Part shown: in pieces, positions 14,908-64,000 of the stretch
Position numbering within the stretch: the stretch's first letter is position 1
How the letters are laid out: each line of letters opens with the position of its first letter
Translations under genes and position numbers: made by a program
Source: a virus
IMG/VR virus record: IMGVR_UViG_3300008954_000005
Coordinates: 91,723 to 155,722 of that record
Reading direction: 5' to 3' (one strand)
DNA: 64,000 nt
The notes under the pieces: model-generated
The model's database searches: none
Told to the model about the DNA's origin: nothing
The model's input: the letters and a program-made list of their open reading frames with translations, nothing else

Positions 14908-15125
14908 ATTTAGATTATATGGAACGCGCTAATACTTGAAGAAGACCATTCCGATAATAATTTTTATTATTTAATAATTACAGCGTAATAAAATACCCAT
15001 TATCACTACGTAATAAATGCCCAAAAAGTGCAAAAATAGGGGTGTTTTTAGGGATAAGAATAGTGAAGGGAAGCAATAGGTGTTTCTCTCGTAAAACCCT
15101 TTTTGTCCTTTAGGAGGAATGTCTC
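14908..15125. promoter_or_regulatory. AT-rich divergent promoter region
   Basis: Markedly AT-rich intergenic stretch; TATAAT on - strand at 14919-14914; TTGAAG-N16-TAATTT on + strand at 14936-14963; inverted repeat ATAATAA-TTT-TTATTAT at 14954-14970; AGGAGG at 15112-15117. Confidence 0.65.
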
Positions 15126-25153: not shown

Positions 25154-25294
25154 AGTTGCGTCCTTGTAAATAACTTAGATACTGCGCGTGAAGTACCTAT
25201 TTCTCTAACAGCTTTTATCATATATCCCAAGACCTGGGTTGAAAAGCAGCAGTATAAAAATGGTCTCAGTCTTTCATTACAAGATAATAAGGTT

Positions 25295-25322
25295 GGGGAG
25301 GGGGGAAAAATCCCCCCTCCCC
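25295..25322 (-). terminator. Perfect 12-bp GC-rich hairpin after the 998-aa gene (terminator or processing site)
   Basis: GGGGAGGGGGGA-AAAA-TCCCCCCTCCCC; followed on the - strand by AACCTTATTAT (weak U-tract). Confidence 0.65.
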
Positions 25323-59887: not shown

Positions 59888-61360
59888 TCAATCTCCAGCC
59901 ATTACGAGACCACCAGCAGCAGCACCGCCAGCAAGCGGTCGCCAGTTCTTCTTCGCAGAAGCGAGAGTCTTGGCAAGCTCAGGATTACGCTCAAGCATCG
60001 CAGCCCACTTCTTAGCTGCTTCTGGGAAGTTCCTTGCTGCCGCATCGCTTGTTGCTTTGGCACCGCTCTCAATACCCTCTGCTACCGCTCTACCACCGCT
60101 CTTCACGCCACCCCAGGCCTTACTGATGTGCGGGGTAGCTTTAGCTCCCCAGCCAGCAAATCGCTTACCTAGATTAGCGAGAAATACCGGGCTGGCTGCG
60201 GTCTTGTCCATGTAGTGGGTGTAGAGCGTTCCAGACGCCAAGCTTAGGCCGTTGGTAAACAAGACCTCGTGTCCAGGAACCATGTGTACTACTGCGGAAG
60301 CCTTCTTCTTTTTGCCCTTTCCACGCTCTTGGATGATTTTGTTTAGCAGTGTTTTCTTGTCTCCGTGAAGAGAGCGGGCCTTACCTCTAGCGCTTGATTG
60401 CAGCCCTATCCCAGCAATCATACTAGCAAGACCACCTGCTTCCAACGCTAACTGTGCCTTAGGGTTCTTCGGAACGAAGGAACCCAGCAAAGCCCCTAAA
60501 CCAGCTATGCTTGTGCCGGTGCCAAGACCGCCTCTCCTTTTCATCTGCTTACGCTTTTTATGGATGTCTTTGATCACCTGCTCCTTTGAGCGAGGATCGT
60601 CCGTCCGACCCTGCATCTGGGCTGGAATCAAAGCATCTCTCTCTTCCTGGGTTAACTTAACCCTCTTGGCGATCTTTACGGAGCCCTTTTTCTCTTGTTC
60701 CCGCTGGCGTTGTGCGAGAGCGGAGGATGCAATCGAACCCGCTGCCATCGCGTACTGCCTAGCAGCACGAGATTTTTCTGTGGCCTTAAGACGCTCTGTA
60801 TTCATTTTGTGCGCCTCAATACGATCAGCACGCGCTCTGCTCTGTTTGGCTCCATGAGCCTTACGCAGCTTTAGGTCGCTTCGGAGAAGCTGGCGTAGGA
60901 TCTTCCCTTTGGCTTTCTCGTTCGCCATGTGGGGGGCAATCCCTAACGTCGGGATACCAGTAAGGATTGGGTGGCGCATTGAGAAGCTTTTAGCCCGAGC
61001 TTTCCCAATCAGGTTCCGAACCTTAGCCTCATCCTTATCACCAAAGTACGCACCAATCTCATCCTCGATGTCCGAGACGTTAAGCTTGGCCGTCTTCTTC
61101 ATCTTCTTCTTGAGAATAGCGGCTTGAATGCTGTCAGGGAGCTTGGACTGCTTGCCTTTAAGGGCGGGGCTCTTGTCCATCGCAGGAGAGAAGGTCGCCT
61201 TACTCGCCTGCTTCTCTTCCCCGCCACCCATCTTGGCAGCTAGAGCAGCAACCTGCTCATCAGACCAATCAGGGTATGCGGCCTTAATAGCCTCTTTAGC
61301 TCCCATGCCTTTCGCCATGAGCGCCTTTACTTTCGCTACGTTAGCTAGCTTGCTTGTCAT
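59888..61360 (-). CDS. Lys-rich modular protein with K-x-A motifs (putative internal head protein, 490 aa)
   Basis: SKLA, EKQA, KKTA, VKIA, KKKA, MDKTA delimit modules; several modules contain Gly-rich hydrophobic helices. Confidence 0.6.
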   Translation of the reverse strand: MTSKLANVAKVKALMAKGMGAKEAIKAAYPDWSDEQVAALAAKMGGGEEKQASKATFSPAMDKSPALKGKQSKLPDSIQAAILKKKMKKTAKLNVSDIEDEIGAYFGDKDEAKVRNLIGKARAKSFSMRHPILTGIPTLGIAPHMANEKAKGKILRQLLRSDLKLRKAHGAKQSRARADRIEAHKMNTERLKATEKSRAARQYAMAAGSIASSALAQRQREQEKKGSVKIAKRVKLTQEERDALIPAQMQGRTDDPRSKEQVIKDIHKKRKQMKRRGGLGTGTSIAGLGALLGSFVPKNPKAQLALEAGGLASMIAGIGLQSSARGKARSLHGDKKTLLNKIIQERGKGKKKKASAVVHMVPGHEVLFTNGLSLASGTLYTHYMDKTAASPVFLANLGKRFAGWGAKATPHISKAWGGVKSGGRAVAEGIESGAKATSDAAARNFPEAAKKWAAMLERNPELAKTLASAKKNWRPLAGGAAAGGLVMAGD

Positions 61361-62256
61361 TGTAGGTACCTCTCCAATTTTTTCTTAATGGCATTTTTGA
61401 GGCGACTGACTTGATAATCAGGCATACCTAACGCCTTTGCGATTTCATTAGTGGACGTAAGTTGGGGTCGCCCAAACCCTGTAAGGTGTTCGTACACCGC
61501 ACGCTCATTACCCGTTAATTCGTACTTCGCCAAACGAAGAACTTCCTCTGACTTGGACGGGGTTAAAGCATACGGATCTTCCTCAAATCCTTGCGTAGTA
61601 AGATCATTTCGTAATTCGGCATCCATCCGCTTGGCCTCTGCAAGAGGCCACCCGAGATTTTTAGCCATCTCTGATACTGAGGGGATCTTACCAAGATCCT
61701 CGGTAAGTTCATCTCTACGCGTCGTATAAAGTTTTAGCTTGTAAACGCGGTTCTCTGGGATGCGCCCGATGTTTTGGTTTTCGACAATGAATCGTTTCGA
61801 CTTGTCTAGATACCGGTACACATAGGTCCCAAGTGAACCTTTAGTCGGATCATACGACCGAAGGGCGTCTACAAAGCGAAGTTGAAACTCAGCCTCTATA
61901 GCTGAGTCGGGAATCATCTTTACCTTCCCTTTGTAGACGTTCGACTTGGACCTAATCATGGGTCGGAAGCTCTTAAGAAGCGGTTCAAGATCCTTTGGAT
62001 CCATTCCGCCATCTTTCCACGCCTGCCACATCTCCAACTCTTTTGCCTTTTTAGTATCGAGTTGGAGTTCCGGATGCTCGTGGCCACTAACAGCTTCGGC
62101 GGCTGTTGGTGCCCCCTCGTCATCTGTCGCCCGATCATGCTCTGCGACGGTAACGACCTTCCCACCAGTACGCCGGGTATGCGCACTTACACGGGTCCTG
62201 CGTTCAGCGAACTTCAGGAAATCCATTACAGGGTCGGTACTCAAGGCAAGCTCCAT
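61357..62256 (-). CDS. Phage sigma70-family (FliA/SigB-like) RNA polymerase sigma factor with N-terminal extension
   Basis: Region 2 ALRSYDPTKGSLGTYVY; region 3 GKIPSVSEMAKNLGW; region 4 LTGNERAV...TNEIAKALGMPDYQVSRLKNAIKKKL. Confidence 0.9.
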   Translation of the reverse strand: MELALSTDPVMDFLKFAERRTRVSAHTRRTGGKVVTVAEHDRATDDEGAPTAAEAVSGHEHPELQLDTKKAKELEMWQAWKDGGMDPKDLEPLLKSFRPMIRSKSNVYKGKVKMIPDSAIEAEFQLRFVDALRSYDPTKGSLGTYVYRYLDKSKRFIVENQNIGRIPENRVYKLKLYTTRRDELTEDLGKIPSVSEMAKNLGWPLAEAKRMDAELRNDLTTQGFEEDPYALTPSKSEEVLRLAKYELTGNERAVYEHLTGFGRPQLTSTNEIAKALGMPDYQVSRLKNAIKKKLERYLQ

Positions 62257-62271
62257 AATTATACGCGCTTC

Positions 62272-63114
62272 TTAGTCACTAAGTTTCTTCGCACCGAGAC
62301 CAAGGGCAGCTAATCCAGTCGTACCGACAGCAGTCTGTAGCCGAGCTTTACGCGTCTTAGCCACCTCAGCAGCGAGCGCCTCTTCTCTGGGCGTTACGCT
62401 CCTCTTGTCGTAGCTCGCAAGCCGCTTTTCAGCCTTCGCCAACTCAGCTTTATTCTTTCTGGCTTTGGGTACAGGGCGTTTTGACTTAGCGGTCTCTAGT
62501 GCCTCTCTGGCACCCTTCTGGTTGCTGCCGACAACGCGCTTAGCAAACTGCTCAGCACCTTCTCGCCAAGCAGCCAAACGACCGCTAGCCGCCTTAGCGA
62601 GCGCATTATCTTCTTGGCTGGATTTGCCGCCCTTAGCGGCCAAACCGATGGCACCCAAGCCAGTAACACCTACGCCAGCGCCAGCAACGCGTCTGTACTT
62701 CTTAGTTCGGGCTTTCTCGACGTCAATCTTGTCGCCCTTGGACTTGATCTTACCAATAAGATCCTTAGTTCGCTGCTTGCTCGCCGCCTCGTCAGCTTCT
62801 CGGGCCTTGCTCTTGCCGAAGACCTTTTCCTTCAAAGAGGTCTTCTTGGAATCAGCAACCCGCTTGGTCTCATGAGCCTTAAACTTCTTCTGCGACTTTG
62901 AGAGGTTCTTTTGGGCAGAGCCGACGTTCTTTCCCTTAATAACAGCGACGGTCTTTTTGCCCTCTTTTAGGGCTGCTCTGAAGGTTCCCTTTAGGGCCTC
63001 CACGACAGCATTCGCCGCCTCTTTCTCCAGAGGGCCTCCGTTAATGTCAATAATCCTTGCCCCAAGCGAGGTACTAAGACCCCGTTTAACGGCTGTTTTC
63101 TCTAACTGACGCAT
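62272..63114 (-). CDS. Lys/Ala-rich protein with K-x-A motifs and two tandem units (putative internal head protein)
   Basis: LEKTA, LEKEA, LAKAA; two units each ending in VG.TGL.A.GL.AK; GGAGG RBS. Confidence 0.65.
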   Translation of the reverse strand: MRQLEKTAVKRGLSTSLGARIIDINGGPLEKEAANAVVEALKGTFRAALKEGKKTVAVIKGKNVGSAQKNLSKSQKKFKAHETKRVADSKKTSLKEKVFGKSKAREADEAASKQRTKDLIGKIKSKGDKIDVEKARTKKYRRVAGAGVGVTGLGAIGLAAKGGKSSQEDNALAKAASGRLAAWREGAEQFAKRVVGSNQKGAREALETAKSKRPVPKARKNKAELAKAEKRLASYDKRSVTPREEALAAEVAKTRKARLQTAVGTTGLAALGLGAKKLSD

Positions 63115-63390: not shown

Positions 63391-63999
63391 CTATGCTAGC
63401 TCGGTGTCGCCACCGGTGTCGGCCCAGCCGTCGGGTGGTTGGGGGGTAGCTACACTAGCGGTTTGAACACCACTACCAGCAATACCGGTGCGGTTACCCA
63501 TAAGGTTTCGCATTTCGGCAACATAGGCTGATACCGCCGTGTGCCGCGCAAGCCTAGTATCTGTCTCTGCTCTAACCTCTCGCTGTTCTGTGCCGGGGGC
63601 AACCGTGGTCAACCTCTCGTCAGCCCCGGTCATCGGCACTTCGTTACCGTTAGTGTCTTCTTTCATCAGGCTAGTAAAAGGACCAAACGCCCATGAATGG
63701 AACCCCTCAACAGGACCACCAGCACCAGCCGCTACATCGGTTTCACTAATATTCCCATACCAACGACCCGGACTAGCCATTGTCATATCGGTAGCGGATT
63801 GCCACGTCATACCTTTATTTACTGTCCCAAGGATATCGTAAATATCAGCCATAGACCGTTGCGTGTACGTATCGATAAACCGATTTACGTCAGCGCCAAT
63901 CTCCTTCAACCCCATCCACACCTCTGCCAACGCATCCGCAGCAGCCTGTGTCGTGTTCCCTGGCTGCATCAAGTCTGATGGTACGAGGACGTCTTGAAC
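63391..63999 (-). CDS. C-terminal part of a hypothetical protein, probably truncated by the window edge
   Basis: Frame stays open from the track start (63972) to 63999. Confidence 0.6.
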   Translation of the reverse strand, partial: VQDVLVPSDLMQPGNTTQAAADALAEVWMGLKEIGADVNRFIDTYTQRSMADIYDILGTVNKGMTWQSATDMTMASPGRWYGNISETDVAAGAGGPVEGFHSWAFGPFTSLMKEDTNGNEVPMTGADERLTTVAPGTEQREVRAETDTRLARHTAVSAYVAEMRNLMGNRTGIAGSGVQTASVATPQPPDGWADTGGDTELA

Positions 64000-64000
64000 C

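Follow-up and report, generated by a model that had tools for sequence, protein, structure and literature searches.

In reviews of large phages, two groups are distinguished: phages that encode an RNA polymerase (RNAP) of their own lack a sigma factor, and phages that encode a sigma factor lack an RNAP (PMC7824862, PMC13282480). The locus analyzed here is the gene at positions 61357–62256 (minus strand) of a 64,000-nucleotide stretch of IMG/VR virus record IMGVR_UViG_3300008954_000005. This stretch, hereafter referred to as the window, covers the final 64 kb of a linear record, 155.7 kb in length, from a large marine phage, with a CheckV completeness of 87%. The gene encodes a sigma-70-family protein of 299 amino acids, and the same record encodes an RNAP. 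The presence of both in one phage is an unusual combination when set against the two groups of the reviews.

The closest described systems are the Salmonella phage Arash and the Vibrio phages D69, D148, and D181. Their sigma factors (Gp10 in Arash) are homologous to the present one, with ∼30% identity over residues 72–297, and are encoded at the same place upstream of baseplate genes. Their RNAPs (Gp206/Gp216 in Arash) are likewise homologous (∼30–32% identity), and these phages carry a TTTAGGGTATAAG-type motif. The differences lie in the sigma factors, which at 229–234 amino acids have no N-terminal extension, and in the RNAPs, which lack a 34-amino acid hairpin insert; the Arash enzyme is also split into two genes, as against one chain of 2077 amino acids here.

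The best explanation of our data, to which we assign a rough probability of 0.5, is that the divergent sigma factor and the phage RNAP form a holoenzyme that would be carried in the virion and would read promoters of a TATAAG class. This reading is built on the identity of the sigma factor, the presence of the RNAP and its co-occurrence with the sigma factor in relatives, the homology of a hairpin found in both proteins, and a conserved promoter motif. What is new here is the hairpin module, which is common to the sigma factor, the RNAP, and polyvalent cargo proteins of other phages.

Identification of a divergent sigma-70-family factor

The open reading frame (ORF) at 61357..62256 (minus strand) starts with ATG and ends with a stop codon at 61357–61359, and its 299 codons include the N-terminal extension. 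The sigma core, residues 67–299 (61360..62058, minus strand), comprises regions 1.2 and 2 (helices within 62–161), region 3 (168–221), the 3.2 linker (222–234), and a probable region 4 (235–298). The Pfam model Sigma70_r3 matched residues 181–209 narrowly, with 27.2 bits against a cut-off of 25.3, and PHROG 351, annotated as “RNA polymerase sigma factor,” matched residues 128–298 (E 1.3e-13). A profile built from 44 sigma homologues and compared with the Protein Data Bank (PDB) aligned residues ∼120–205 to regions 2.2–3.1 of RpoS/SigA (E 1e-8). The AlphaFold2 (AF2) model, with a predicted local distance difference test (pLDDT) score of 77.5, was matched by Foldseek to sigmaS/sigmaA chains with a probability of 1.0 over ∼260–290 columns. 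The PDB profile and Foldseek both showed the presence of region 2, with its core-binding part (2.2) and the part recognizing the −10 element (2.3/2.4). For region 4, the PHROG 351 alignment and the NCBIfam alignments reached residue 298, and four C-terminal helices (235–298) were found in the AF2 model; the NCBIfam sigma-70/SigBFG matches, covering residues 125–298, were all sub-threshold. Among the melting aromatics, as judged from the PDB alignment, only the equivalent of Y430 is kept, the positions of W433 and W434 being occupied by R and Y.

The Pfam models Sigma70_r2 and Sigma70_r4 gave no match to the protein, and the sigma factor is therefore considered divergent. The ORF thus encodes a genuine but divergent sigma-70-family factor with regions 1.2 to 3 and a probable region 4, lying outside all curated subfamilies. 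An earlier note, made from the DNA sequence of the window, had described a sigma70-family protein with an N-terminal extension of about 65 residues, and this description is in agreement with the Pfam, PHROG, PDB profile, and AF2/Foldseek results. It is the sole sigma factor detectable in the genome. A metagenomic family of sigma factors of the same length gave 170 matches, many of them on contigs of 160–190 kb, and identity ranged from 49 to 100% among the 120 matches listed.

The phage RNA polymerase as probable partner of the sigma factor

The RNAP gene is located at 76780–83013 (minus strand) on contig C1 of the record, outside the window, and encodes a single-chain beta-beta′ enzyme of 2077 amino acids in which the domains Rpb2_3/6/7 are followed by Rpb1_1/2/3/5 in one ORF. 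The gene lies in a head/structural block, next to a gene for an SNF2 helicase (69070–70857) whose Arash homologue (Gp217) is likewise abundant in virions. The protein could be aligned to both the beta (E 4e-40) and the beta′ (E 5e-85) subunits of E. coli, and a blastn search of the gene against phage records gave no match. The flap-tip helix is kept (EQAMLKGIH as against EEKLLRAIF in E. coli) in a segment predicted to be helical, with three of the four hydrophobic contact positions of the E. coli enzyme conserved. The clamp helices, the other element on which sigma docks, are also kept. Here, the positions aligned to R275 and E295 of E. coli beta′, the clamp-helix residues in contact with sigma, are both Leu, and this hints at a private interface between the phage sigma factor and the phage RNAP.

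Co-occurrence points in the same direction. An RNAP was found in 14 of the 19 sigma-bearing records, and none of the six records with a completeness of 90% or more is without it; the five that lack it are fragments with 19–56% completeness. All four cultured phages with this sigma factor encode an RNAP. The most likely partner of the sigma factor is the phage's own RNAP and not the host core enzyme, a pairing that we infer from these comparisons.

The earlier note had proposed a different course of events, in which the sigma factor is packaged, trimmed after K15-F16-A17 by a head protease, injected, and used to reprogram the host core polymerase. We consider this model as a whole very unlikely. 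Its redirection of the host core finds no support, as the phage encodes a complete beta-beta′ RNAP that co-occurs with the sigma factor in all complete relatives, and the enzyme is sigma-compatible in its flap tip and clamp helices. The Leu residues at the R275 and E295 equivalents also argue against it. The location of the gene among late genes, the conservation of the extension, and the detection of the Arash homologue in virions, which are all described below, nevertheless speak for the model.

A conserved TATAAG-class candidate promoter motif

A promoter-like motif copy, TTTTAGGGATAAGAATAGTG, is present at 15046..15065 (plus strand) and belongs to the class TTTnGG(G)TATAAG, a candidate target of the sigma-RNAP holoenzyme. 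The consensus of the class, TTTnGG(G)TATAAGnnnT(T)TG, is represented by ∼14 sites in the genome, nearly all of them intergenic. The sites precede small genes of the left arm and non-structural units on the plus strand, with a T-rich tract upstream. According to the genome-wide site list, no site of the class precedes the sigma or RNAP blocks, and none lies within the sigma/tail block. Intergenic enrichment of TATAAG was found in the phage record under study (G000; 17/38, p 2e-8) and in the complete relatives G002 (p 4e-5) and G010 (15/26, p 7e-9). The sites are positionally conserved between G000 and G002, for example, beside the gene for the RNAP and before the replication unit, and the motif TTTAGGGTATAAG is intergenic also in Salmonella phage Arash.

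The motif TTTnGG(G)TATAAG resembles an extended −10 element and is without a −35 element. Host sigma-70 needs a T at the position (−7) where the phage motif has a G. The motif points to the phage's own sigma factor and RNAP, rather than host holoenzymes, because it is conserved across phages whose sigma factors are 30–40% identical and whose hosts differ.

Further intergenic elements were observed. The gap at ∼25250–25300 (minus strand), before the genes for a 218-amino acid and a 2883-amino acid protein, contains a strong G/C hairpin (GGGGAGGGGGG-ATTTTT-CCCCCCTCCCC) and, after it, a promoter-like site, GGGATATATGATAAAAG. The sequence GGGAGGGGG has six copies in the genome, all of them intergenic.

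Structure and conservation of the N-terminal extension

Three parts could be recognized in the extension. A leader helix with the consensus NPVxDFLK[FY]A covers residues 9–18 (62203..62232, minus strand), as supported by the AF2 model and by conservation. It is followed by a basic beta-hairpin with a twin V-x-x-H-x-R motif at residues 21–42 (VSAHTRR..GKVVTVAEHDR; 62131..62196, minus strand), for which AF2 predicted strands at 26–30 and 33–37 and which was also recovered by hmmsearch, hhalign, and a library search. The third part is an acidic linker of variable length at residues 43–66 (62059..62130, minus strand), predicted to be disordered with a pLDDT below 50 at residues 43–61. In this layout, FLKFA corresponds to residues 13–17, VSAHTR to 23–28, and VAEHDR to 37–42, and the first sigma helix of the AF2 model begins at residue 62. 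The order of FLKFA, VSAHTR...VAEHDR, and acidic linker given in the earlier note is thus borne out by the sequence and the AF2 model.

The extension is kept in 44 homologues of 54–86% identity, with P9 and V23 invariant and with at least 90% conservation of F13, K15, A17, R28, V37, and R42. Their consensus reads NPVxDFLK[FY]A..T.V.AHTRR..GK.V.V..H[DE]R, and the linker varies in length through insertions. Such strong conservation of the consensus shows that the extension is functional in this clade, where the conservation among orthologues on which the earlier note had depended does hold. More divergent sigma factors carry less of it and show the steps of its build-up. Those of G008–G010 (38–40% identity) have the helix, in the form DPVLDFLEFA, where K15 is replaced by Glu, and the acidic linker, without the hairpin. 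Those of 30–35% identity, from G016, Arash (234 amino acids), and Vibrio phage D69 (229 amino acids), begin at about residue 66–72. A profile of the N-terminal extension gave no match to solved structures.

A hairpin module shared by the sigma factor, the RNA polymerase, and polyvalent proteins

A hidden Markov model of the sigma extension, searched against the six-frame translation of the genome, found one other place, residues 854–882 of the RNAP (VRVKEHTRTIQTKEGPKQITIKAHDREV; E 0.007). In the reverse search, starting from the RNAP insert, the sigma extension was the best non-self match (E 0.068), and hhalign related the two hairpins with a probability of 96% (P 4e-9) over 27 columns. In the beta part of the RNAP, the insert is flanked by shared regions, with ILETHLG on its N-terminal side and the DGRTG segment on its C-terminal side, and the alignment to Arash Gp206 has a 30-residue gap exactly at this site. 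A model of the RNAP fragment was of moderate quality (pLDDT 65, insert 54–67) and showed the insert as short beta strands, with no more detail.

The sigma hairpin and the 34-residue RNAP insert are both present in G000–G007, both being divergent in G007, and both absent in G008–G010, G016, Arash, and D69; this comparison was made leaving out the G011/G012 lineage, in which the contig end truncates the N-terminus of the sigma factor. The sigma factor and the RNAP are the only carriers of the module in the complete relative G002, and the complete relative G010 has none. The relationship of the two hairpins in sequence is a stronger argument than their co-distribution.

The extension profile was further searched against 1.84 billion representative proteins of a library. 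Apart from sigma factors, the matches were large multi-domain proteins with two to six copies of the module (E 5e-16 to 4e-4). The protein P0122 (1365 amino acids), which has an ADP-ribosyltransferase (ART) domain, carries six copies (E 5e-16), and the module (...RLLAEAKVRVKAHVRHSEKGKAYRVKQHERE...) precedes every domain. Two proteins with an InPase domain were also found, P0123 with four copies (E 2e-11) and P0133 with a match at E 4e-4, and P0126, P0128, P0130, and P0132 match the profile as well. P0123 is encoded in a virion-like block; its neighbors there are a Peptidase_S74 tail protein and another giant protein, which matches ART-PolyVal weakly. These multi-domain proteins fall under the polyvalent proteins as defined by Iyer et al. 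(2017; PMC5512222), who predicted that phage polyvalent proteins, those with InPase included, are packaged and injected. No description of the helix and twin-hairpin module was found in Pfam or in that paper (PMC5512222). It was also observed that in P0123, P0128, P0130, and P0133, the hairpin often comes directly after Q-[LMI]-[GS]-[LMF]-[FL], e.g., QLSLF, which resembles the bacterial beta-clamp-binding consensus. The sigma factor has DFLK[FY]A at the position of this clamp-like peptide, which is not a clamp motif.

The resemblance to cargo proteins claimed in the earlier note therefore needs to be relocated: the extension shares a helix-hairpin module with the phage polymerase and with the cargo proteins that other phages encode, and not with the products of the neighboring genes. 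The module most likely acts as a tether of the sigma factor, be it to the polymerase, to DNA, or to a virion partner common to both. As a tentative extension of the holoenzyme reading, the hairpin may be a portable mark of proteins that travel with DNA, either a virion address or a DNA tether, put on the sigma factor and the RNAP by one Arash-like marine lineage, with the complete sigma-dependent holoenzyme being packaged and injected; we regard this as possible but doubtful.

A role unrelated to packaging is about as possible. The extension could be a regulatory arm comparable to region 1.1: the acidic linker would keep DNA binding masked, and the hairpin would dock on the sister hairpin of the RNAP or close to it, or would contact upstream DNA and so stand in for the alpha C-terminal domain, which is missing. 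Such an arm would fit a packaged or a non-packaged sigma factor. The acidic disordered segment directly before region 1.2, the fact that the sigma and RNAP hairpins are always both present or both absent, and the T-rich tract upstream of the TATAAG sites are in agreement with it. The repetition of the same module in polyvalent proteins, which are without a polymerase, speaks against it.

The K-x-A motif and the proposed cleavage

The earlier note had linked the sigma factor to its neighbors through a K-x-A motif, read as a site for maturation. The generic motif is at the level expected from composition, with three copies in the sigma factor where 2.2 are expected, with 252 in the whole genome where 225 are expected, and with the Lys/Ala-rich neighbors at or below expectation, and it was rejected as a shared motif. 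A stricter form, [LM][ED]K.A, is enriched genome-wide (12 copies against 3.1 ± 1.7 expected, a count reached in none of 300 shuffles) and in four basic proteins (four against 0.22 expected). It is found at residues 4–46 of several proteins of the head/structural block, as LEKIA, LEKLA, or LEKTA, and may be where the head protease of this phage really cuts. To this extent, the model of a trimmed sigma factor gains from the analysis, as a protease site of such a kind may exist.

However, the strict motif is not present in the sigma protein, and the type to which FLKFA belongs, [FLM]LK.A, is not enriched genome-wide (three against 2.9 expected). With the enriched motif absent and the FLKFA type at chance level, the link by motif between the sigma factor and its neighbors fails. 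Cleavage after A17 is likewise unsupported, as FLKFA is not of the enriched type and K15 is replaced by Glu in G008–G010. The model is further weakened by Arash Gp10, which has no extension to be trimmed and was recovered with 100% peptide coverage. In the holoenzyme reading, the sigma extension is not a K-x-A protease tag.

Evidence for a probable carriage of the sigma factor in the virion

To our knowledge, all characterized phage sigma factors are made after infection. An ordinary intracellular sigma factor, made in infection and serving one temporal class of genes together with either the host core or the phage RNAP, would be in line with this; its position among tail genes would then be historical, and its detection in Arash particles would be carry-over of an abundant DNA-bound holoenzyme. 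In Arash, mass spectrometry coupled to liquid chromatography (LC-MS) of virions purified on sucrose gradients listed 116 of 272 proteins (PMC10585845). The list includes ribonucleotide reductase, kinases, and ligases, and the authors raise carry-over (PMC10585845), as the intracellular alternative would have it.

The peptide counts, however, set the transcription proteins apart (PMC10585845). The RNAP chains Gp206 and Gp216 gave 128 and 40 unique peptides and the SNF2 helicase Gp217 gave 38, as compared with 32 for the portal and 30 for the major capsid protein. The sigma factor Gp10 was detected with 24 unique peptides, 100% coverage, and 467 spectra, whereas the DNA ligase, the primase, and two helicases gave two unique peptides each. 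The count for the sigma factor is thus at the level of the portal and capsid proteins and far above that of obvious carry-over proteins, and the counts for it and both RNAP chains are structural-level ones, unlike those of the two-peptide contaminants. The intracellular alternative also has to account for the sigma and RNAP genes being without a TATAAG-class promoter while both lie in tightly packed structural blocks, and for an extension module that is otherwise found on proteins predicted to be packaged. On balance, we judge it unlikely.

The authors of the Arash study list the sigma factor among virion enzymes in passing and offer early transcription and carry-over as explanations (PMC10585845). 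The earlier note knew of no described example of a virion-delivered sigma factor; a sigma factor had already been listed among virion proteins in that paper. Its suggestion of delivery by the virion is plausible in view of the late-block context and of Gp10 in Arash virions, a published though little-noticed precedent, and the sigma factor of the present phage is probably carried in the virion. The sigma factors of Arash and D69 have no extension, and the extension therefore cannot be a general packaging signal. Most simply, the sigma factor would be packaged as part of the holoenzyme.

Proposed order of events

According to the holoenzyme reading, the sigma and RNAP genes would be expressed late, together with the structural genes, and the holoenzyme would be packaged. 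It would enter the cell with the phage DNA and would initiate first at the TTTnGG(G)TATAAG promoters of the non-structural genes. Arrival of the holoenzyme with the DNA and first reading of TATAAG promoters is the simplest order because the sigma and RNAP genes lie among structural genes and have no TATAAG promoter. The hairpin of the sigma factor may serve as a tether, with a second copy at a surface hot spot in the beta part of the RNAP.

Several observations weigh against this reading. The assignment of the TATAAG motif to the sigma factor is based on the fact that it is conserved and has a non-canonical G at −7, not on mapping of transcription starts. Inspection by eye of the gaps that lie upstream of structural genes revealed no common motif, and no search for a late-promoter motif was run. 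The sigma factor keeps a canonical region 2 and probably a canonical region 4, which are compatible with binding to the host core. The paired occurrence of the hairpins could be explained by one gain or loss, which makes the weight of the pattern modest. The list of Arash virion proteins is long (116 of 272), its authors allow for carry-over, and the data come from a homologue and not from this phage. If the mass spectrometry is right, the Arash sigma factor is packaged without an extension, and the module is then not needed for packaging.

Genomic context of the sigma gene

Downstream, the sigma gene overlaps the next gene through an ATGA stop/start (61357..61360, minus strand), which was read directly in the sequence as the earlier note had it and suggests co-transcription and translational coupling of the two. 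The downstream gene (59888..61360, minus strand) encodes a Lys/Ala-rich protein of 490 amino acids with Gly/Ala hydrophobic segments, which is poorly conserved among relatives and gave no family in Pfam, PHROGs, or the ESM Atlas. Upstream, at a distance of 15 nt from the sigma start, lies the gene for a Lys/Ala-rich protein of 280 amino acids (62272..63114, minus strand) with the strict L-E-K-x-A at residues 4 and 29. Pfam, PHROGs, and the ESM Atlas were uninformative on these Lys/Ala-rich neighbors; their description as cargo-like was not confirmed, and a role as tape-measure or tail-lumen proteins is just as possible.

The minus-strand genes from 63972 down to 15839 of the window are nearly gap-free, with two gaps of at least 40 nt besides one of 83 nt directly upstream of the 280-amino acid gene. 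A scan for consensus sigma-70 promoters and terminators over 50–64 kb of the window gave results not above those of shuffled sequence. A perfect TATAAT is present at 62260–62265 (minus strand), 2 nt before the ATG of the sigma gene; as a promoter of this gene, it is too close to the ATG and is probably due to chance.

The block that contains the sigma gene includes baseplate wedge, baseplate, and giant fiber-like proteins. Relatives down to 30–42% sigma identity retain the order of sigma, a 415-amino acid protein, a 320-amino acid protein, and baseplate homologues, and the Lys/Ala-rich genes between sigma and the conserved genes of the block vary. In Arash and D69, the sigma gene lies between a gene for a protein of ∼760–1170 amino acids, which is structural in Arash, and baseplate genes. 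In the complete relative G002, the proteins encoded upstream of sigma gave Ig, FN3, and ConA-like virion domains and nothing else. Near gap-free packing and synteny in relatives both place the sigma gene in a structural block that is probably expressed late, as had been proposed earlier.

A run of genes for giant proteins (2883, 998, 841, 1532, 2225, and 2613 amino acids) occupies 15839–50013 (minus strand). Its sole identifiable member is the 2613-amino acid protein, with a baseplate-wedge N-terminus, and the run presumably encodes baseplate and fiber proteins. At the other end of the window, an ORF at 63391–64000 (minus strand), cut by the contig end, corresponds to the C-terminus of a protein of ∼1200 amino acids (1201 in G002), and this record lacks ∼25 kb of virion genes that would lie upstream of sigma on the same strand.

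Comparison with known systems

The surface hot spot in which the RNAP hairpin is inserted also receives lineage-specific inserts in bacteria, namely beta-i11 of E. coli and beta-i12 of Thermus (Opalka et al., 2010; PMC2939025). Beta-i11 is a helical insert of 59 residues of unknown function (PMC2939025), whereas that of the phage is a basic beta-meander of 34 residues. The N-terminal extension of the sigma factor recalls region 1.1 of sigma-70 in having an acidic segment before region 1.2. The two have no similarity in sequence or fold, region 1.1 being a helical domain and the extension being a short helix with a basic hairpin and a disordered acidic linker. Polyvalent proteins (PMC5512222) have the same helix and twin hairpin, a copy of which precedes every enzymatic domain (ART, InPase, and others). 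The sigma factor is a single unit with one module and differs from them in this respect, as well as in being without the beta-clamp-like Q-L-x-L-F peptide of many polyvalent copies. An uncatalogued module common to a sigma factor, a polymerase, and polyvalent cargo can be approached in its function by simple deletions, and the system would be a test case for the addressing of proteins into virions.

Like T4 gp55, SPO1 gp28/gp34, and the RpoD-like sigma factors of jumbo phages, the protein is a sigma-family protein of a lytic phage and may alter promoter specificity. The former are synthesized once infection has begun and work with the host core, whereas the present gene is located in a late block, is accompanied by a phage RNAP, and has a homologue found in virions. 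The phages phiKZ and AR9 also possess host-independent phage RNAPs of beta/beta′ type, one set of which is packaged and injected, with gp68/gp226 as the promoter-specificity subunit. Their RNAPs consist of four to five polypeptides and have no homologue of sigma in sequence, unlike the present phage, which has a bona fide sigma-70-family protein and a fused beta-beta′ chain in a genome of less than 200 kb. If the holoenzyme reading is true, this would be the first true sigma-70-family factor to serve as an injected subunit of a virus-encoded RNAP of multisubunit type that reads its own TATAAG promoters. The cultured members Arash (Salmonella) and D69 (Vibrio) would then offer a tractable, minimal sigma-dependent transcription system. 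The phage group would join both classes of the reviews, with a compact single-chain beta-beta′ enzyme and a recognizable sigma factor with a simple conserved promoter.

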